From a virus (taxonomy: Duplodnaviria > Heunggongvirae > Uroviricota > Caudoviricetes), in IMG/VR virus record IMGVR_UViG_2585427787_000004, positions 1 through 11,928 of that record: a stretch of DNA of 11,928 bases; one strand, given 5' to 3'. Positions 2,384 to 11,162 of this stretch are shown piece after piece. The translations under genes were made by a program, and so were the position numbers. The notes below the pieces were generated by a model. That model had not been told where the DNA came from. It ran no database searches and worked only from the letters and a program-made list of their open reading frames with translations. The stretch's first letter is position 1. The number at the start of each line of letters is the position of its first letter.

Positions 2384-2497
2384 TCACCACCAACGCACAG
2401 CCCAAATCAGAACAGCGACCGCCACAAGGCGAATTGCAAAGGCCGCAGCCCTTGTCAAATCAAGGCTCGCGGGAGTTTCCATTTCAATACCTTTCAT
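2384..2497 (-). CDS. 37-aa peptide with C-terminal hydrophobic helix (MKGIEMETPASLDLTRAAAFAIRLVAVAVLIWAVRWW), below the ORF-track size cutoff
   Basis: Hand-translated from the minus strand. ATG at 2497 preceded by GAGGT Shine-Dalgarno at about 8 nt; stop TGA at 2386..2384, one base before the lipoprotein ATG, suggesting a coupled pair. Confidence 0.3.
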   Translation of the reverse strand: MKGIEMETPASLDLTRAAAFAIRLVAVAVLIWAVRWW

Positions 2498-2587
2498 AAT
2501 GGACAACCTCAAAAAGAATCTTTTATACTTTCCCACGAGGATTTTCTCCGTACTCACTAATCACAATTTCCCCTTTGACGTGAAAAC

Positions 2588-2627
2588 TAAAAACCCCGGA
2601 CTGTTCCCCCAGCCGGGGTTTTGTTTT
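2588..2627. terminator. Bidirectional rho-independent terminator hairpin (CCCCGG-A-CTG / CAG-CCGGGG) flanked by A-run and T-run
   Basis: Stem-loop read from sequence 2594-2618 with TTTTGTTTT on the plus side and AAACTAAAAA before it (U-tract for the minus strand). Located immediately 3' of the endolysin stop. Confidence 0.6.
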
Positions 2628-2629
2628 AC

Positions 2630-3007
2630 TTATCGCTTCAGCTGAAAGTGAGGTCCGTCTTTCAGCGTTTTCCAGTCCCCGCCCCATTCGATAGCGATCC
2701 CCAGCTCTGCGGCAGCCTGCTTAAATGCCTGTGCGATTTTCTCGTACAGAGGCCACTCCCATGACACCTGGCTGCCGATGTAGGCCACAACATCCACCGC
2801 ATCACCGGTCAGGTGGCGGCTGTTCATGGTCTGGCTTTTCCCTTCCGCAACCAGCTGTTTCTGGCGATACTTACTGCGCAGGCCTTCCGTAATACCGAAA
2901 TCAACCTCCGTCAGCTCCAGCGCACGGCGAACTACAGCAACCAGCTGTGGTTTGACACCCTCCAGATTTTTTTCACTGCGACGGCTGAATCTGAATTTAC
3001 CCGGCAT
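2630..3007 (-). CDS. Endolysin, peptidase M15 family (zinc D-Ala-D-Ala carboxypeptidase / L-alanyl-D-glutamate peptidase-like)
   Basis: Translation shows the M15 zinc-ligand pattern: SRHLTGDAVDV (H-x6-D) and C-terminal DGPHFQL histidine. The ORF track begins at a GTG (3013); I prefer the ATG at 3007, which has a GAGGTG Shine-Dalgarno about 5 nt upstream and sits 2 nt after the TGA of the preceding gene. Confidence 0.8.
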   Translation of the reverse strand: MPGKFRFSRRSEKNLEGVKPQLVAVVRRALELTEVDFGITEGLRSKYRQKQLVAEGKSQTMNSRHLTGDAVDVVAYIGSQVSWEWPLYEKIAQAFKQAAAELGIAIEWGGDWKTLKDGPHFQLKR

Positions 3008-3009
3008 AT

Positions 3010-3285
3010 TCACCTCAACAATGGAAAGATTTTTGTGACGTTCCCGCGTGCGTGTATCACCAGCACGCAGAACAGCAGGTTAAAAAACACTTCCAGCCAG
3101 CCCGTTGCTAACGGGCGACCACACAGATAGCTGAGGGGCGCAAAGGCATACAGCAGCATCAGCAGCCAGGCCAGCCATGACACCAGCGGTTTATGTCTGG
3201 AATCACGGCGACGATAAAAAAAGAGCGTCAGCACGATAACCGTGCATAACGCCACATTCAGCAATCCGGGAAGGTTACTTAACAT
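3010..3285 (-). CDS. Lysis-cassette membrane protein (91 aa, 2-3 predicted TM helices); possible second holin or antiholin
   Basis: Hydrophobic translation (LLNVALCTVIVLTLFFY...WLAWLLMLLYAFAPL...FFNLLFCVLVIH); ATG at 3285; tightly packed between the putative holin and the endolysin. Confidence 0.5.
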   Translation of the reverse strand: MLSNLPGLLNVALCTVIVLTLFFYRRRDSRHKPLVSWLAWLLMLLYAFAPLSYLCGRPLATGWLEVFFNLLFCVLVIHARGNVTKIFPLLR

Positions 3286-3667
3286 TGCCGCCTACTCCAC
3301 CCCGCAGGCGGGAGAACACACCGGACACCAGCGATGCAATATCCTGCTGGTGGATGAACGAGAGAATCTTCACCGACACCACCGAGACCAGCACCGCGCA
3401 AAGCGCATCTGCTGATGTACCGTCATACCCTGTTTTTGATGCAATCCAGGCTGACAGCACACGCGCTCCCAGCACGCCGACAATAAACGACACCAGAAAA
3501 TGCGCCACCACGCGCCAGACTGAAAGTGACTGCGGCATCGTTGCCACAAATAACGCCCCGGCGAACGCGCCAAACACAATCCCGAAATCCATCCCGGTAA
3601 ACAGCCCGAATACCGTCGCGCCACCCAGCGCCGCAGCCGTGCCGGAACCGGATAAGGGTTCAGACAT
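3275..3667 (-). CDS. Putative holin (130 aa, three hydrophobic segments)
   Basis: ORF-track frame 3275..3718 trimmed to the ATG at 3667, which is preceded by a strong AGGAGG Shine-Dalgarno (rev. comp. of 3671-3676). Three hydrophobic helices and a charged C-terminus; first gene of the lysis cluster upstream of the endolysin. Confidence 0.55.
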   Translation of the reverse strand: MSEPLSGSGTAAALGGATVFGLFTGMDFGIVFGAFAGALFVATMPQSLSVWRVVAHFLVSFIVGVLGARVLSAWIASKTGYDGTSADALCAVLVSVVSVKILSFIHQQDIASLVSGVFSRLRGGVGGNVK

Positions 3668-3755
3668 ACTTCCTCCTGAAAATAAAAAAAGGGCCACCAG
3701 CGACCCGTAAAAAAACACCCCGTCAAAGGCACCCGCAGATGCCTTTTGTGTGATG

Positions 3756-3908
3756 TTATTCAGATTTACGCAGTAAAGGCCGGAGCACGATCAGCGCCAT
3801 CGCCACCAGCACACCATCTGCCAGCACTGACATCAGTCGTCCGGTGAAATCCACCATCACTACCAGAAACAACAGGATGACAGCCAGCACAAGGCGCGCA
3901 CTTTTCAC
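3756..3908 (-). CDS. Possible 50-aa hydrophobic peptide (GTG start) just upstream of the holin; very tentative
   Basis: Hand-translated minus-strand frame: (GTG) KSARLVLAVILLFLVVMVDFTGRLMSVLADGVLVAMALIVLRPLLRKSE, GGAG about 8 nt upstream of the GTG. Below the ORF-track cutoff; no homology recognised. Confidence 0.2.
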   Translation of the reverse strand: MKSARLVLAVILLFLVVMVDFTGRLMSVLADGVLVAMALIVLRPLLRKSE

Positions 3909-4111
3909 AGGTACTGCTCCAGCGGCAACTGCAGCGCCTGCGCAATTTTCTTCAGTTGCGCTTCTTCTTCCTGACCGATACCGTCCTGGTCAGCGATATC
4001 CAGACACAGACACAGCACATTCACAGTATCATCAGTATCTGCAACATCAGTCAGCTGACGAAGGGCTTCAGCATTAGCAGAACGCGGTGGCGCTTCATAA
4101 CGGGCGCGGAT

Positions 4112-4137
4112 ATGAAAAAGGCCCGCCGAAGCGAGCC
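4112..4137 (-). terminator. Candidate rho-independent terminator after the tRNA cluster (GGCUCGC-UUCG-GCGGGCC followed by U-run on the minus strand)
   Basis: Hairpin read from plus 4120-4137 with A-run at 4115-4119 (U-tract on the minus transcript). Confidence 0.45.
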
Positions 4138-4151
4138 TGGAAAAATAAGCG

Positions 4152-4228
4152 TGGCGCGTTGTACTGGATTCGAACCAGTGACCGATTGCTTAGAAGGCAA
4201 TTGCTCTGTCCGGCTGAGCTAACAACGC
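4152..4228 (-). tRNA. tRNA-Arg (anticodon UCU), phage-encoded
   Basis: Reverse complement folds as a cloverleaf: acceptor GCGTTGT/ACAACGC, D-arm GCTC...GAGC, anticodon stem ATTGC/GCAAT with loop CTTCTAA (anticodon TCT), T-arm ACTGG-TTCGAAT-CCAGT, discriminator G, encoded CCA. Confidence 0.85.
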
Positions 4229-4241
4229 AGGGTACAGATAA

Positions 4242-4318
4242 TGGACCGCCATCGAGGACTCGAACCCCGCGCAACCAGCTTCGAAGGCTGGCGCTCTATC
4301 CTGATGAGCTAATGGCGG
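4242..4318 (-). tRNA. tRNA-Arg (anticodon UCG), phage-encoded
   Basis: Reverse complement: acceptor CCGCCAT/ATGGCGG (perfect 7 bp), D-arm GCTC...GAGC, anticodon stem CCAGC/GCTGG with loop CTTCGAA (anticodon TCG), T-loop TTCGAGT, encoded CCA. Confidence 0.8.
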
Positions 4319-4325
4319 TATGTGA

Positions 4326-4401
4326 TGGTGGCCCTTGCTGGATTTGAACCAGCGACCTGGCGATTATGAGTCGCTCGCTCTCACCACTGAGCTAAAGGGC
4401 C
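4326..4401 (-). tRNA. tRNA-Ile2-like (anticodon CAU; sequence resembles the E. coli lysidine-modified AUA-reading tRNA rather than tRNA-Met)
   Basis: Reverse complement GGCCCTTTAGCTCAGTGGTGAGAGCGAGCGACTCATAATCGCCAGGTCGCTGGTTCAAATCCAGCAAGGGCCACCA closely resembles, as I recall it, the chromosomal tRNA-Ile2 (ileX/ileY); anticodon loop CTCATAA. Confidence 0.8.
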
Positions 4402-4450
4402 GGGAGCAGAATAATAATGGTGCGTAATTAATTCTGCAATCTCATCCGTT

Positions 4451-5500
4451 TCAAACGATTAAATCCTGAACTTCCCTGACTGTCTGTTCAAAACGTCCGG
4501 TCTCCAGCTCAACACCAATCGCACAACGCCCCAGTGCCATCGCCGCTTTTACCGTTGAACCTGAACCCATAAAAAAATCTGCAACCAGGTCTCCCGGACG
4601 ACTGCTCGCGTTGATTATCTGCTGCAGCATTTCTGCCGGTTTTTCGCACGGATGTTTCCCTGGATAGTACTGCACCGGTTTATGCGTCCAGACATCGGTG
4701 TACGGAACCTGCGCCGTCACACCGAAATACCGCCGCAAATTTTTATATTCACTCAGCAGTTCCGTATACTGCCGGTTCAGCTCACTGTATGTGCTGACCA
4801 GCTGGTGGTGTGGCTTTTCCAGTTCCCCGCGCTGATGTTTTTCTGCCGCAACACGCGCAAACAACGCCTGCAATTTATTGTAATCACCCTCGTTCGGTAA
4901 CTGCCACTGACTGGCACCAAACCAGTGCGAAGCCATGTTTTTCTTTCCGGTGGCTTCCGCTATCTGTTTTGACGTTATTCCCAGTGATTTACGCGCATCA
5001 CGAAAGTAAGAAATCAGCGGGGCCATGACGTGCTGTTTTAGCTCGCGCCCCTGCTCCACATAGCCATCATCTTTCGGGCGATACGGTCCCTGATAATGTT
5101 CTGCAAACAGAATGCGCTCTGTTGCCGGAAAATACGCCCGCAGACTTTCCTTATTGCACCCGTTCCAGCGTCCGGACGGCTTCGCCCAGATAATGTGGTT
5201 CAGCACATTAAAGCGCTCACGCATCATGATTTCGGTGTCAGATGCCAGGCGATGACCACAGAACAGGTAAAGACTTCCGGCAGGCTTCAGTACCCGCCAG
5301 AACTGCGCCAGACACTGGTCCAGCCATTTCAGGTAATCATCGTCGCCCTCCCACTGGTTATCCCAGCCCTCGGGCTTCACTTTAAAGTATGGCGGGTCTG
5401 TGACTATCAGATCGACAGAGTTTTCCGGTAAGGTCTGGATAAACTCCAGGCAATCAGCGTTGATTAACTCACAACTGGATATTTTTACAGTATTAATCAT
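4451..5500 (-). CDS. DNA methyltransferase, beta-class amino-methyltransferase (probably N6-adenine); no adjacent restriction endonuclease seen
   Basis: 349-aa ORF. N-terminal catalytic motif IV DPPY (LIVTDPPYF) and C-terminal AdoMet motif I FxGxG (DFFMGSGSTVKAAMALGRCAIGVE); the IV-then-I order defines the beta class. Confidence 0.85.
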   Translation of the reverse strand: MINTVKISSCELINADCLEFIQTLPENSVDLIVTDPPYFKVKPEGWDNQWEGDDDYLKWLDQCLAQFWRVLKPAGSLYLFCGHRLASDTEIMMRERFNVLNHIIWAKPSGRWNGCNKESLRAYFPATERILFAEHYQGPYRPKDDGYVEQGRELKQHVMAPLISYFRDARKSLGITSKQIAEATGKKNMASHWFGASQWQLPNEGDYNKLQALFARVAAEKHQRGELEKPHHQLVSTYSELNRQYTELLSEYKNLRRYFGVTAQVPYTDVWTHKPVQYYPGKHPCEKPAEMLQQIINASSRPGDLVADFFMGSGSTVKAAMALGRCAIGVELETGRFEQTVREVQDLIV

Positions 5501-5650
5501 AGATCAATAAGCACTTCTCTGATAGGCTCATACCGCTTTTGCGCAAAGCAGATGGGCCTGAGGTTTGCTTGTGACCCCAACGCATGAGCAGATGGCTGGC
5601 AGGTGCCGCTAACACCCACCAGCCGCCCATTACCACAAATTAAAAAGCCT

Positions 5651-5848
5651 TCACTGCGGAAGGCGTCTGTAACAACCGAACTGATAATCTGCCAGACCCG
5701 CCATAACAAGCTGAGTCAGTATTAACTGGCAGCGTTCGCGTGAAAGGTAAGTATTCTGCGCAATTTCCCCGACGGTCGCCGGTTCGGTGATGCTTAATTC
5801 ATTAAACACCACTCTGGCGGTTTCGGTCATATCCTGCTGTTTTAGCAT
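5651..5848 (-). CDS. Small protein (65 aa) with helix-turn-helix-like segment; hypothetical
   Basis: ORF-track frame 5651..5971 begins at a GTG lying inside the terminator hairpin; trimmed to the first ATG at 5848 (alternative ATG at 5830). Translation MLKQQDMTETARVVFNELSITEPATVGEIAQNTYLSRERCQLILTQLVMAGLADYQFGCYRRLPQ. Confidence 0.4.
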   Translation of the reverse strand: MLKQQDMTETARVVFNELSITEPATVGEIAQNTYLSRERCQLILTQLVMAGLADYQFGCYRRLPQ

Positions 5849-6054: not shown

Positions 6055-6083
6055 ATTGAAACAGTTTATGCGTAAAAAATCAA
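6055..6083 (-). promoter_or_regulatory. Candidate late promoter (pR'-like): -35 TTGATT, 17-nt spacer containing TG, -10 TTCAAT on the minus strand
   Basis: Hexamers read from the reverse complement of 6055-6083; the position between the Q-type gene stop and the terminator matches the lambdoid pR'/qut-tR' arrangement. Hexamer match is weak, so this is positional inference. Confidence 0.3.
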
Positions 6084-6634
6084 GACATTTTTTGAGCAAA
6101 CGATTCTCGCATAGGGATGTATAGCGCATATTCAGCAACAGCTAACCAATTAGCAATTCGCTTTTCGCATGTACTAAAACACCATTCCGGGTGCACCTCA
6201 TTCAACAATTCAGCCATTTTGCGTTTACTCATCCCCCGCCCTTCGTACCTTTGCCGCAGGATATCAATCAATCCAGGATAACGTGCAAGCGCTTTACTTA
6301 TCACCCCATCAATGCGTAACGCCTCTGCATCAGTACAGTGAGACAACCAGCTCTTCTGTCTGCCAGCGATCATCTCTCGCAAGAATGCTTCCAGCTCTGG
6401 TTTATCAATCCCTGACTCCCTGATTCTACGCAGGGCTTCATTGATTGCGGTTTTTGTCAGTTTTTTGGATGCCAGCAACTGATTGAACATATTTCCTGGT
6501 TTGCCACCACCTATATACGACCAACGCCCCCACATCCGTAATTTCCCCTGGATCCAGACGGCTTCCAGCGTTTTTAGACGTAAATGCTCGCCGCTTTTGC
6601 CTGTAATTTCCGGGTATATCATATTTACGATCAC
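6080..6634 (-). CDS. Putative late-gene antiterminator Q (Q-family protein)
   Basis: 184-aa ORF (GTG at 6634; first ATG at 6622). Contains an LRMWGRWSYIGGG segment resembling the WGAW segment I recall from phage 21/933W-type Q proteins, and sits in the canonical Q position: after rusA, before a promoter-terminator pair and the lysis genes. Confidence 0.6.
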   Translation of the reverse strand: MIVNMIYPEITGKSGEHLRLKTLEAVWIQGKLRMWGRWSYIGGGKPGNMFNQLLASKKLTKTAINEALRRIRESGIDKPELEAFLREMIAGRQKSWLSHCTDAEALRIDGVISKALARYPGLIDILRQRYEGRGMSKRKMAELLNEVHPEWCFSTCEKRIANWLAVAEYALYIPMRESFAQKMS

Positions 6635-8493: not shown

Positions 8494-8649
8494 TTACTCC
8501 TCAGGTTCGTAAGCTGTGAAGACAGCGACCTCCGTCTGGCCGGTTCGGATTCGTACCTCGCAGAGGTCTTTCCTCGTTACCAGTGCCGTCACTATGACGG
8601 TTAAACAGATGACGATCAGGGCGATTAACATCGCCTTTTGCTGCTTCAT
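8494..8649 (-). CDS. hokD: Hok/Gef-family type I toxin (51 aa)
   Basis: Translation MKQQKAMLIALIVICLTVIVTALVTRKDLCEVRIRTGQTEVAVFTAYEPEE matches, as far as I can recall, E. coli HokD (RelF); typical Hok TM helix plus the conserved Cys/Tyr periplasmic tail. ATG at 8649 preceded by AAGGAG. An in-frame upstream ATG at 8706 gives a 70-aa extension (possible mok-like reading frame). Confidence 0.85.
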   Translation of the reverse strand: MKQQKAMLIALIVICLTVIVTALVTRKDLCEVRIRTGQTEVAVFTAYEPEE

Positions 8650-9050
8650 AGCCTGCTTCTCCTTGCCTTTCGGCACGTAAGAGGCTAACCTAGATTTGCC
8701 GTTCATAGATTGAGCCTCAGATTAATGTTAAACGTCTTGCAGGACGCGTAACGTTAACTGGGGCTTTTCTCTATCTGCCTTTTGGTGGCATGCCTGAGAC
8801 AGATAACCTCAAGCACCCGCAGTAATTTTACATAAAGGTTATGGTTCCTTTCAATAACTCAACAATTTCCCATCTAAATACTACTCATATAGTCATATAG
8901 GCTGGCGATAATTTAAAGATAAGACTCTCTCTTTTTCTCCACCACATAATGCATTACCAACGCAAAAGTTACCATGGTAATTATATCTTAACGAAAAATA
9001 CCCCGCGAACATATTCTACTCAACAAAAAATTTTGCGTACGCATTATTCT

Positions 9051-9079
9051 TTGTAGTATCTTAAGTATGTAATTATTTT
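9051..9079 (+). promoter_or_regulatory. Candidate sigma-70 promoter for the two-gene cassette (-35 TTGTAG, 17-nt spacer, -10 TATTTT)
   Basis: Hexamers read from sequence about 20-45 nt upstream of the ORF A ATG in an AT-rich leader; match is modest. Confidence 0.3.
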
Positions 9080-9097
9080 TTACAGGAAATTTTTGCA

Positions 9098-10012
9098 ATG
9101 GCTAGCAAGCGCTTTTTCTTCGATTTTTATCAATGTCACACTATAAGCACTGATACAAATGCAGGAGTTAATTCACCTGAAGCTGTTTTTTCAAAAATTT
9201 TTGAGTCATACAGCGAAGGCCGAGACAAAACTGTACGTAAAATAGGAAATAAACTAGTTGAAATGCGCTTCATGGAAAGAACCGACTATGGTTTCAGGGG
9301 AGTTATAGGAAAACACAGAACCAATAATCTCCCTCATGTTGCTGTAGCCGGAGGTGAAGAAAGAGAAATTAAACTTGAAATCAATGAAAACTTATTAGAA
9401 AAAGCTTATTTTCATTTTTATACCCAAGACTCAGTTTTAATAATTCAACGAAACAGACTCTGTTATGGCTGGTTGCTATTAAGTAAATATCTTTCCAACA
9501 GTTCACAAAATACAACTGTTAATCCCATCATTCAGACCAGTAGTTTAAAGTGGTTGATGCGTAATGAAGTTCGAATCAAAACTCTAGAAATCGGTATCGC
9601 TCGGCCAAAGAATGTGCAACTATATGAGGATGTTGAACATAACTTCAACAATGCATTGATAGCCACTCTAAATGGTACTAATTCTGCCAAAGTAAATCTT
9701 ACATTACGTGGGGATAGTCGTTCTGAAGATCCTGAATCTCGCTATCTAGGTTCTCAACTAAAAAGAGCCTTTAAAGAAACACTAGAGACTTTTGAGGTTG
9801 AAAAACTTAAACTAGAAACCCAAGACATTGAGACCGGTGTACAGCATCCTATCGATCTTGTAGCAGACAAATTAGTCTACTACACAGATGTTGAACTTGG
9901 AGGTAGGTATCCATTAGTTGGCAGCATTTGGAGCGCCTTAACTCTTGCAAAAGATAGTAAAGATGATGAATTGAAGGCATACTTTGGAGTAGCCAATCAA
10001 AGAGTTGATTAA
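9098..10012 (+). CDS. Hypothetical soluble protein, 304 aa (ORF A of the AT-rich cassette); no family recognised
   Basis: Long ORF with AT-rich codon usage, ATG at 9098 with a weak purine-rich stretch upstream. No Walker, HxH or other catalytic motif that I can assign with confidence. Followed 15 nt later by ORF B. Confidence 0.7.
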   Translation: MASKRFFFDFYQCHTISTDTNAGVNSPEAVFSKIFESYSEGRDKTVRKIGNKLVEMRFMERTDYGFRGVIGKHRTNNLPHVAVAGGEEREIKLEINENLLEKAYFHFYTQDSVLIIQRNRLCYGWLLLSKYLSNSSQNTTVNPIIQTSSLKWLMRNEVRIKTLEIGIARPKNVQLYEDVEHNFNNALIATLNGTNSAKVNLTLRGDSRSEDPESRYLGSQLKRAFKETLETFEVEKLKLETQDIETGVQHPIDLVADKLVYYTDVELGGRYPLVGSIWSALTLAKDSKDDELKAYFGVANQRVD

Positions 10013-10027
10013 TTTTGGAGCGATGGT

Positions 10028-10507
10028 ATGAAAAAGGGGAAATTGATAACTTTGTACAGTTATGGTTATAATTTAGCCTCTGTTGTTTTTTGTATCATCG
10101 CATGGCCTCTTTCTGCAAAGCTAAATTTTGCACAAATTCAGCCAATCGCTTCGGCCGTTTCTACATTTTCTGGGATATTATTTGGCTTTGTTTTAGGTTC
10201 GCTTACCTTGATTGCTTCAGCTAGAGATAATACGCTAATTAGAAATATAGGAAAAACTGGTTATTTGAAAAAACTGACCGAAGAAATGCACTCCACTATG
10301 GGATGGTTACTATCAGTTTGTATTATTTTTATCATTTTATTATTTTTCCCTGATACACTAAAGTTTAAATTCCCACTAGTAAAAGATGCCGACGAGCACA
10401 CATATGCCCAACTATTACTCCAAGTGGGAATTTTTTTCCTGCTTATTACATTTAAAAAATTTTATACTACCTGGTCGCGTCTAAAAGACATAACAAGGCT
10501 CATGTGA
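10028..10507 (+). CDS. Hypothetical small polytopic membrane protein, 159 aa, about four TM helices (ORF B of the cassette)
   Basis: ATG at 10028 preceded by GGAG at about 8 nt. Four hydrophobic segments (LASVVFCIIAWPL; IASAVSTFSGILFGFVLGSLTLIA; MGWLLSVCIIFIILLFF; YAQLLLQVGIFFLLITF) separated by short charged loops. Confidence 0.7.
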   Translation: MKKGKLITLYSYGYNLASVVFCIIAWPLSAKLNFAQIQPIASAVSTFSGILFGFVLGSLTLIASARDNTLIRNIGKTGYLKKLTEEMHSTMGWLLSVCIIFIILLFFPDTLKFKFPLVKDADEHTYAQLLLQVGIFFLLITFKKFYTTWSRLKDITRLM

Positions 10508-10512
10508 TATAT

Positions 10513-11037
10513 CTATAATTGCACATAAAAAGACAATCCTAACAATACTCCCATTGTAAGTTGTATATTCTTTCTTATTGTTCCATCTGAACATTTGTAC
10601 CTTCGTGCTATTGTACGCAAAGATATACCTATAACAAAATGAGCGATAATTAACTCATAGTCATCTATTCTATATTGTTTAAGCTTCAACATGCAGGTAT
10701 CAATCATACGACCTTCATCGTTGCCACACTGACGGCGTAATTTCTTACCATGAGGTACTACATCTTTATATTTATCAGCCACTTGCTGCCAGTTGATAGA
10801 ACTATTTCCAGCTGCAGCCCAAGCCCCCCAACTGTCCAAAATATCATATATATTAGCATTGCTATCCACCTTTTTTTTATATTCTTTTTTGAGGCAACCA
10901 AGAAGCATCCTGGCCATCGTTATTATTTCTATACTTGTAACTGATTCATAAGCATCAGGAGAAATAATCCTCCCATCACTTAATGCCCTTTCACTAAGAT
11001 TTGCTATTTCCAATAATCGTTCTTTAGTTATTTCCAT
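10513..11037 (-). CDS. Q-family antitermination protein paralog (phage 21/933W-Q-like), 174 aa from the ATG
   Basis: Track ORF starts at GTG 11049; the ATG at 11037 has a GGAGA Shine-Dalgarno. The C-terminal 100 aa parallel the 933W/21-type Q as I recall it: LDSWGAWAAAGN vs LERWGAWAANN, CGNDEGRMIDTCMLKLK vs CCDDDAMIICGCMARLK, YKCSDGTIRKNIQ vs HCCSDGYIGKRLQ. AT-rich codon usage. Confidence 0.65.
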   Translation of the reverse strand: MEITKERLLEIANLSERALSDGRIISPDAYESVTSIEIITMARMLLGCLKKEYKKKVDSNANIYDILDSWGAWAAAGNSSINWQQVADKYKDVVPHGKKLRRQCGNDEGRMIDTCMLKLKQYRIDDYELIIAHFVIGISLRTIARRYKCSDGTIRKNIQLTMGVLLGLSFYVQL

Positions 11038-11162
11038 TATTATCTCCACCGCCCTTTCGGGCGGCCTCCTGATGTTCTGAGGGTGCAGAAATCCCTCCGG
11101 TTAAGGATTAAATTTTATTTACAGTGCTGGATTTAATTATTCAGATTTGGATTATGCTTTCT

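Follow-up and report, generated by a model that had tools for sequence, protein, structure and literature searches.

The window analysed here, a stretch of 11,928 nucleotides, is part of an E. coli lambdoid prophage and carries a two-gene cassette on its plus strand. The first gene, ORF A (positions 9098-10012), encodes a soluble protein of 304 aa that belongs to Pfam DUF6731 and to phrog_7651 and is predicted to adopt the RexA fold, with a putative role as sensor. The second, ORF B (10028-10507), encodes a predicted four-helix inner-membrane protein of 159 aa (phrog_8552) and is a putative RexB-like effector. A gap of 15 nt separates the two reading frames, and a GGAG ribosome-binding site for ORF B can be read from the sequence at positions 10017-10020 of the same strand, 7 nt before the ATG at 10028. 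The original prediction had described these co-oriented frames, their positions and spacing, and the GGAG in the same way, and all of this was confirmed from the sequence.

The pair shares a low-GC block, delimited by the composition profile at 8700-11100, with the gene for the antiterminator Q. GC content is 0.32-0.39 from about position 8700 to 11100 vs. 0.50-0.55 on either side, with values of 0.36 for the ORF A/ORF B pair and 0.35 for Q, so the AT-rich block reported at the outset is borne out. The Q gene occupies 10513-11049 of the minus strand (Pfam Phage_antitermQ, E 2.8e-30) and is convergent with ORF B; the stop codons of the two genes are 5 nt apart, and no terminator was found between them. 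A complete hok/sok locus at 8494-8818 comprises hokD, as annotated in RefSeq, and a sok RNA matched by Rfam at 8644-8818, while the IS66-like element ISCro1 forms the right flank from about position 11150; the Hok and IS flanks named earlier are thus both present. The pair is not adjacent to a repressor in the window and instead adjoins Q, in the interval between hok/sok and that gene.

An AT-rich intergenic region on the plus strand (8819-9097) extends from the end of the sok match to the ATG of ORF A and is presumed to hold a promoter and leader. It includes a palindrome at 9023-9054, and a consensus scan of its plus strand returned no strong sigma-70 site. A promoter of the pair's own, not located within this region, is presumed solely because the pair runs opposite to all of its neighbours. 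The flanking phage genes lie on the minus strand, one annotated ORF of 59 aa excepted, and the original statement that the pair opposes every neighbouring phage gene holds with that single exception.

Several complete E. coli chromosomes match segment 8700-11100 at 100% identity. In one of these, the prophage is next to potC and shows the customary order of tail, head, lysis, nin-type, and immunity genes. Of 5426 complete E. coli genomes, only 19 have the cassette, with both ORFs 99-100% conserved among them. Damage is seen elsewhere in the prophage, in the form of the ISCro1 insertion just upstream of Q in the window and of frameshifted genes in the prophage of the closest complete genome. 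In related prophages, the slot from hok to Q holds other low-GC two-gene cargo, including at least two other pairs of a soluble and a membrane protein, neither of which is recognised by PADLOC. The flanks of this slot are present in roughly 3800 E. coli genomes. An alternative cargo, the E7-1N7 pair, was considered as a relative and set aside, showing no significant similarity to the ORF A or ORF B family. A sieB gene is present in a related prophage.

Both ORFs are genuine genes under strong purifying selection and not chance reading frames, because each has many homologues (dozens) and a low dN against a saturated dS. Comparison with homologues about 80% identical gave dN values of 0.12-0.14, and dN/dS was ≤0.06 for ORF B, where the ratio was computable.

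Distribution and linkage of the two gene families

The assignment of ORF A to DUF6731 is well above threshold (E 2.2e-12; 47.6 bits vs. a cut-off of 27), with residues 1-268 aligned to positions 1-269 of the 295 in the model, and RefSeq labels the identical protein a DUF6731 family protein. A profile search of the family, counted as clusters at 50% identity, retrieved 782 clusters at E ≤0.001 and 311 at E ≤1e-10, almost all with proteins of 280-310 aa. Members are spread across temperate phages of Enterobacterales, Vibrio, Pseudomonas, Shewanella, Geomonas, and other hosts. The terms DUF6731, PF20505, and phrog_7651, together with the RefSeq protein accessions, returned no mention in the searchable literature.

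Linkage was assessed at 54 loci found through the family profiles, comprising eight bacterial genomes, among them Photobacterium, Aeromonas, Pseudoalteromonas, Endozoicomonas, Marinobacterium, Geomonas, and a Saprospiraceae MAG, and 46 viral contigs. In all 54, a co-oriented ORF of 124-167 aa with three to five hydrophobic segments lies directly 3′ of the DUF6731 gene, at a distance of -26 to +16 nt except at L051, whose start is ambiguous. These loci include subfamilies only 25-45% identical to ORF A, and the partner proteins are homologous to one another and align with ORF B. Since the genes are linked in every locus and the partners align, the ORF A and ORF B families constitute one conserved two-gene unit. 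Co-occurrence across genomes, which the original prediction had proposed as a check on the pair, is therefore complete in this sample.

In Pseudomonas phage AUS531phi, a CI-type repressor gene (285 aa, with an S24 peptidase domain) is followed by a DUF6731 gene, whose 298-aa product is 32% identical to ORF A, and then by the membrane partner. The three genes are transcribed away from a cro-like gene, in the layout of lambda cI-rexA-rexB. Four other lineages (L023, L032, L055/56, and L040) also have a CI-type repressor immediately upstream of the pair and co-oriented with it. Among 31 non-redundant loci, the commonest neighbour families were Phage_antitermQ (8) and Peptidase_S24 (7), and the pair is convergent with the Q gene in 8 of the 31; the same convergence recurs in a Klebsiella lambdoid prophage. 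Furthermore, the pair adjoins an integrase in a Vibrio prophage and lies within a Mu-like prophage in Marinobacterium. The pair is thus cargo of several temperate phage types, with two recurrent sites, the immunity operon and the position convergent with Q. Both sites could allow a lysogen to transcribe the pair independently of the lytic programme.

Relationship of the two proteins to RexA and RexB

ORF A is most strongly conserved in a motif at residues 74-93 (plus-strand positions 9317-9376), of the form R..(N/D)LPH.(A/G)..GG.ER.(I/L).L, which falls in a predicted flexible loop. Within the close family, R74, L78, P79, A82, G86, E88, R89, and L93 are invariant or nearly so, and R74 and P79 are conserved at ≥90% across 142 diverse family members. 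Residues 76-99 form the sole segment of the structural model with pLDDT below 50.

The best fold match of the predicted ORF A model is the crystal structure of RexA. This match covers 141 of the 304 residues of a model whose pLDDT of 74.5 denotes moderate confidence. The next matches are CENP-N, CHL4, IML3, RdgC (2owl), and a Corynebacterium epimerase (3oh8); all of these except CENP-N are also among the structural relatives of RexA given in the RexA structure paper. The N-terminal domain of the model consists of a sheet plus a helix, the middle domain of four strands and four helices, and the C-terminus of a strand and a long helix that returns to the first domain, an order of secondary-structure elements that agrees with the published description of RexA. 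ORF A is accordingly predicted, on the basis of this model, to be a soluble protein with the RexA fold, in which an RdgC-like split globular domain is combined with a dimerisation domain.

Sequence comparison with RexA gave negative results throughout. Neither ORF A nor any of 142 family members matched Pfam RexA (PF15969) or PADLOC RexA, and searches of PDB sequences with ORF A, whether as a single sequence or as profiles of 25 and 142 sequences, missed the RexA entry 8TWQ. The deep profile gave a borderline match to eIF2-alpha (E 0.009), which was taken as spurious. In hhalign, the DUF6731 profile did not rise above shuffled controls against RexA, whether alone or as a four-sequence alignment; its score of 20.9 is inside the range of the column shuffles, which reach 22.4. 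The RexA relatives in the viral collection are nearly all identical to lambda, which ruled out a deep RexA profile. When the ORF A and ORF B models were compared with viral models by Foldseek, neither lambda RexA nor lambda RexB was among the matches, all of which were uncharacterised proteins apart from a weakly scoring 165-aa protein of Sbash. Of the structure searches that had been proposed, the one for ORF A thus led to the RexA crystal structure, and the one against viral models reached neither lambda protein.

UniRef names one ORF A homologue after DUF4747, a domain that has been attributed to Sbash gp30 and RexA; a Pfam scan did not reproduce the link, and it was discarded. PADLOC yielded no model for ORF A. 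Weak matches to PADLOC candidate models were recorded for five of the 142 ORF A family members (PDC-M67A), for one partner protein (PDC-M67B), and for ORF B itself (PDC-M18B).

ORF B has four hydrophobic segments, and its N-terminus, central loop, and C-terminus are rich in lysine and arginine, which suggests an N-in/C-in topology. Its AF2 model is all-helical (pLDDT 80.8), with helices at residues 3-30, 34-64, 69-77, 79-106, and 126-158, in keeping with the four-helix membrane protein originally described. ORF B belongs to no Pfam family, and it does not reach the narrower Pfam RexB model (PF15968). The PADLOC RexB model is matched weakly by ORF B (E 0.0015, residues 14-83 in register with positions 15-82) and by 13 of 22 diverse partners from its family, the best at E 8.6e-6; among the other PADLOC models (5027 in all), none was matched by more than one of the 22.

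Conservation in ORF B is strongest in the second helix and the central cytoplasmic loop. This RexB-like core (residues 28-84, plus-strand positions 10109-10279) carries the motif G.L.GF...A.D..LI.N..KTG(Y/H), of which G53 and F54 are invariant across distant partners and L70, N73, and T77 nearly so. When a profile of 60 partner sequences was compared by hhalign with a RexB family profile of 15 sequences, residues 28-84 aligned with RexB 29-85 at E 4.3e-4, with a probability of only 34%. The score of 28.7 exceeded the maximum of 17.4 among 30 column shuffles and the 14.3 of a reversed profile. Together, these comparisons lend modest support to a relatedness between ORF B and RexB.

These results modify several earlier expectations. 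The profile searches of Pfam and PADLOC that had been suggested as a check returned DUF6731 and a weak RexB match from PADLOC; Pfam RexA, Pfam RexB, and PADLOC RexA were not reached. No recognisable catalytic motif was found in ORF A or ORF B, as had been stated for ORF A, and the accompanying statement that nothing matches known systems gives way to the PADLOC RexB match and the predicted RexA fold. The likeness to RexAB had been called architectural only, which is contradicted by the RexB matches of 13 of 22 partners and by hhalign scores above those of shuffled profiles. The resemblance is more than one of architecture, comprising a shared fold, as predicted for ORF A, and probably shared ancestry.

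Proposed function and competing explanations

The cassette is fairly probably a prophage-borne, RexAB-type two-component exclusion (abortive-infection) system, its role in defence being suggested by analogy with known Rex pairs. The earlier proposal of a RexA/RexB-type module, with a sensor and a membrane effector, gains support from the RexB matches, the strict linkage, and the relatives found in cI operons. The expected mechanism is the familiar Rex one, its steps being reconstructed by analogy with lambda RexAB, Sbash gp30/31, CarolAnn gp44/43, and P. putida RexABpp. A lysogen would express the pair from its own promoter, and ORF A, probably as a DNA-binding dimer, would sense a product of the superinfecting phage or an intermediate of its replication or recombination. 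ORF A would then engage the cytoplasmic loop of ORF B, which would open or disrupt the inner membrane. The membrane potential and ATP would drop, growth would arrest, and the incoming phage would be unable to multiply.

Most of the remaining probability falls on Rex-like proteins that work by a different logic, an unlikely explanation that takes two forms. The roles may be reversed, with a toxic soluble effector and a membrane protein that sequesters it, as in the Butters type; the P. putida paper summarises gp30/gp31 of mycobacteriophage Butters as such a role-reversed pair. The strict linkage of ORF A and ORF B and the conserved loop of ORF B fit an effector as well as a sequestering role. 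Alternatively, the pair may mainly serve the development of its own prophage. In lambda, RexA by itself tips the switch towards the lytic cycle; according to the RexA paper, it acts in the lysogenic-to-lytic transition independently of RexB. Convergence with Q in 8 of the 31 non-redundant loci points the same way, and an antisense effect on Q is conceivable because of the 5-nt convergent junction, across which, with no terminator, transcription of the pair would run antisense into Q. Many family members, however, lie far from Q or a repressor, one beside an integrase and one in a Mu-like prophage, which argues for a self-contained cargo function.

A module that acts at the envelope, for superinfection exclusion or lysogenic conversion, would also suit some of the data. 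In that case, ORF B would itself keep DNA from entering or directly change the membrane, ORF A would assist or regulate it, and no abortive infection would take place. Entry-blocking exclusion proteins likewise take the form of small polytopic membrane proteins expressed from a prophage, sieB occurs in a related prophage, and no catalytic motif was found in either protein of the pair. Against this, a strictly linked cytoplasmic partner of 300 aa is not something that entry blockers usually require, and the predicted RexA fold of ORF A and the RexB-model matches of the partner family indicate the Rex mechanism specifically, so we consider an entry block distinctly unlikely. The same specific RexA and RexB signals weigh against a housekeeping role in which ORF A would be an RdgC-like, DNA-binding modulator of recombination or of the nucleoid acting for the prophage, and ORF B an anchor in the membrane or a small protein with no relation to it, the pair having no part in defence; this is very unlikely. 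Given the ISCro1 insertion upstream of Q and the frameshifts in genes of the closest complete genome, the prophage might be defective and the pair a passenger that is decaying or has no function. The pair's intact frames, 99-100% conservation in 19 complete E. coli genomes, and strong purifying selection make this extremely unlikely.

If the RexAB-type reading is true, the anonymous DUF6731 family and its unnamed membrane partner become a broad Rex-type branch of about 780 clusters at 50% identity. By the count of a January 2026 paper, only five Rex-like systems are described, and the way in which RexA detects infection and brings RexB to open has stayed unsolved for 70 years. The branch would offer many natural variants, including a native E. 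coli one, for analysing the features of the sensor and the channel, for which the conserved loop of ORF A and the cytoplasmic loop of ORF B are obvious entry points. The pair is not flagged as a defence system by PADLOC, and current defence-finding tools would overlook systems of this kind. The cargo slot of E. coli prophages between hok and Q is also worth mining.

A more ambitious proposal, tentative and rather unlikely as a whole, is that DUF6731 and its partner form a large, separate Rex-like lineage of about 780 clusters at 50% identity, with the invariant flexible loop of ORF A (residues 74-93) as its own sensing element and possibly a different logic of trigger and effector. The hok-to-Q slot of Rac-like and lambdoid prophages would at the same time be a dedicated hotspot that swaps unrelated pairs of soluble sensor and membrane effector.

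Comparison with known systems

Kiwa (KwaA/KwaB) pairs a membrane protein of four transmembrane segments with a soluble protein of about 300 aa and has the membrane gene first. The cassette resembles it in this pairing and differs in its gene order, which is reversed. The original prediction had extended its comparison to Kiwa, CBASS, and Pycsar, and none of these is supported, because none of their PADLOC models was matched; searches of PADLOC and Pfam with ORF A, ORF B, and their families found neither the DUF4868 domain of KwaB nor a CBASS/Pycsar cyclase. The fold shared by RdgC and by CENP-N, CHL4, and IML3 also appears among the matches of ORF A, although its scores are far below that of RexA, and these proteins have no membrane partner and a different biological setting.

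RexABpp of P. putida prophage P1 (PP_5643/PP_5644) differs from the pair in its detectability, since RexApp reaches RexA by HHpred (98%), whereas the ORF A family does not by hhalign. A 22-mer of RexApp derived from a primer was absent from the viral collection, and a cluster look-up of the nearest representatives contained no Pseudomonas putida entry. A RexA-like clamp dimer and a ring-shaped membrane protein are reported for RexABpp. Should RexApp prove to be a DUF6731 protein, one member of the branch would already have been tested.

The pairs of mycobacteriophage Sbash (gp30/gp31) and Gordonia phage CarolAnn (gp44/gp43) likewise combine a soluble RexA-like protein with a protein of four transmembrane segments. 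Both proteins of each pair are described as needed for defence, and the central cytoplasmic loop of gp31 as essential; in ORF B, conservation is highest in the equivalent loop. The better fold matches of ORF B also include a 165-aa protein of Sbash, at rank 6 (TM 0.53, E 0.62). The actinophage RexA-like proteins are longer (337-372 aa) than ORF A, and their hosts are Actinobacteria.

From lambda RexAB, the cassette differs in sequence and position. No sequence similarity between ORF A and RexA could be detected, and the Pfam models for RexA and RexB are not reached; the conserved, predicted flexible loop at residues 74-93 is described from the ORF A side alone. The pair also lies outside the immunity region, between hok/sok and Q and on the opposite strand. 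RexAB-type systems are expected to have a dimeric soluble component with non-specific DNA binding and contact with its membrane partner, features addressed in PMC11077077 through SEC-MALS, EMSA, and two-hybrid assays, and RexB, like Sbash gp31, is described as N-in/C-in. In both systems, the gene for the soluble protein precedes that for the membrane protein across a 15-nt gap, with products of 304 and 159 aa here and of 279 and 144 aa in lambda; RexAB-type systems as a class combine a soluble protein of about 280-370 aa with a membrane protein of about 140-165 aa. The predicted fold of ORF A best matches the RexA crystal structure, and the conserved second helix and central loop of the four-helix ORF B align with RexB 29-85. 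Both systems are prophage-borne, and relatives of this pair lie directly downstream of cI. The pair had been put forward as an undescribed kind of module; the best reading is instead that it represents a widespread, distant branch of the known RexAB kind.

Cargo of the hok-to-Q slot

The slot occupied in the window by the cassette of ORF A (a soluble DUF6731 protein of predicted RexA fold) and ORF B (a four-helix membrane protein), positions 9098-10507 between hok/sok and the antiterminator-Q family gene, carries other two-gene cargo in two related prophage loci, L082 of E. coli E7-1N7 (4277-5741) and L083 of E. coli CUVET20-1667 (2492-4955). In both, the borders are hokD and a Q gene 87% identical to that of the window, and the cargo has a GC content of 0.33-0.35 and lies in opposite orientation, as in the window. 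The L082 pair, a 309-aa soluble protein and a 182-aa four-TM protein, had no match in Pfam or PADLOC, while L083 holds a 352-aa protein of the NA37 nucleoid-associated family and a 477-aa protein with three TM segments at its C-terminus. The slot appears to be a hotspot for pairs of a soluble and a membrane protein.

Transcriptional surroundings and neighbouring genes

On the hok side, the window carries hok/sok, a type I toxin-antitoxin system, as a complete locus (8494-8818), comprising the hokD coding sequence, a longer overlapping reading frame that is possibly mok (8494-8706), and a sok RNA matched in Rfam at 108.7 bits. On the other side, ORF B (+) and the Q gene (10513-11049, -) converge, with their stop codons 5 nt apart and no terminator-like structure in between (10505-10515); transcripts reading through from either one would be antisense to the other. 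A near-consensus sigma-70-like site on the (+) strand (10043-10072; TTGATA, 18 nt, TATAAT; 11/12 matches) lies just within the start of ORF B, but its significance is doubtful because such matches are frequent in AT-rich DNA (12 observed against 8.3 expected).

An IS66-like ISCro1 element starts at about 11150, some 100 nt upstream of the start of the Q gene. Its junction with Q is absent from all complete E. coli genomes in the collection, the closest of which have a DUF4752 gene in its place beside Q; the insertion would sever Q from the early operon. Besides this Q-family gene, the prophage has a DUF1133 gene (6080-6634, -) that immediately precedes the region with the methyltransferase, tRNA and lysis genes. 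There, a 349-aa DNA methyltransferase gene (4451-5500) is followed just downstream by three tRNA genes (4152-4401, -), namely Arg-tct, Arg-tcg and one with a CAT anticodon that RefSeq assigns to Ile, and then by the lysis genes; the RefSeq annotation of the matching genome lists only two tRNAs.

Distant resemblances of the pair

Among viral structure models, ORF A and ORF B have their best fold matches (E 4e-16 and E 7e-3) in BFVD entries A0A8S5S8L2 and A0A8S5S8H0, both from one uncultured phage, Siphoviridae sp. ctylc9, at only 12-13% sequence identity. This shared origin suggests, from predicted structures, that the phage carries a pair of the same type. Against the PDB, the DUF6731 profile (142 sequences) matched eIF2-alpha in its S1/helical region with borderline significance (E 0.009), at profile positions 211-289 (roughly window 9740-9990); this match is probably spurious.

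Among PADLOC candidate systems, PDC-M67A was weakly matched by five of the 142 DUF6731 members (best E 7e-4), PDC-M67B by one membrane partner, the small ORF directly after a DUF6731 gene in related loci (E 0.059), and PDC-M18B weakly by ORF B itself (E 0.007). These candidates could be remotely related to the ORF A/ORF B pair.
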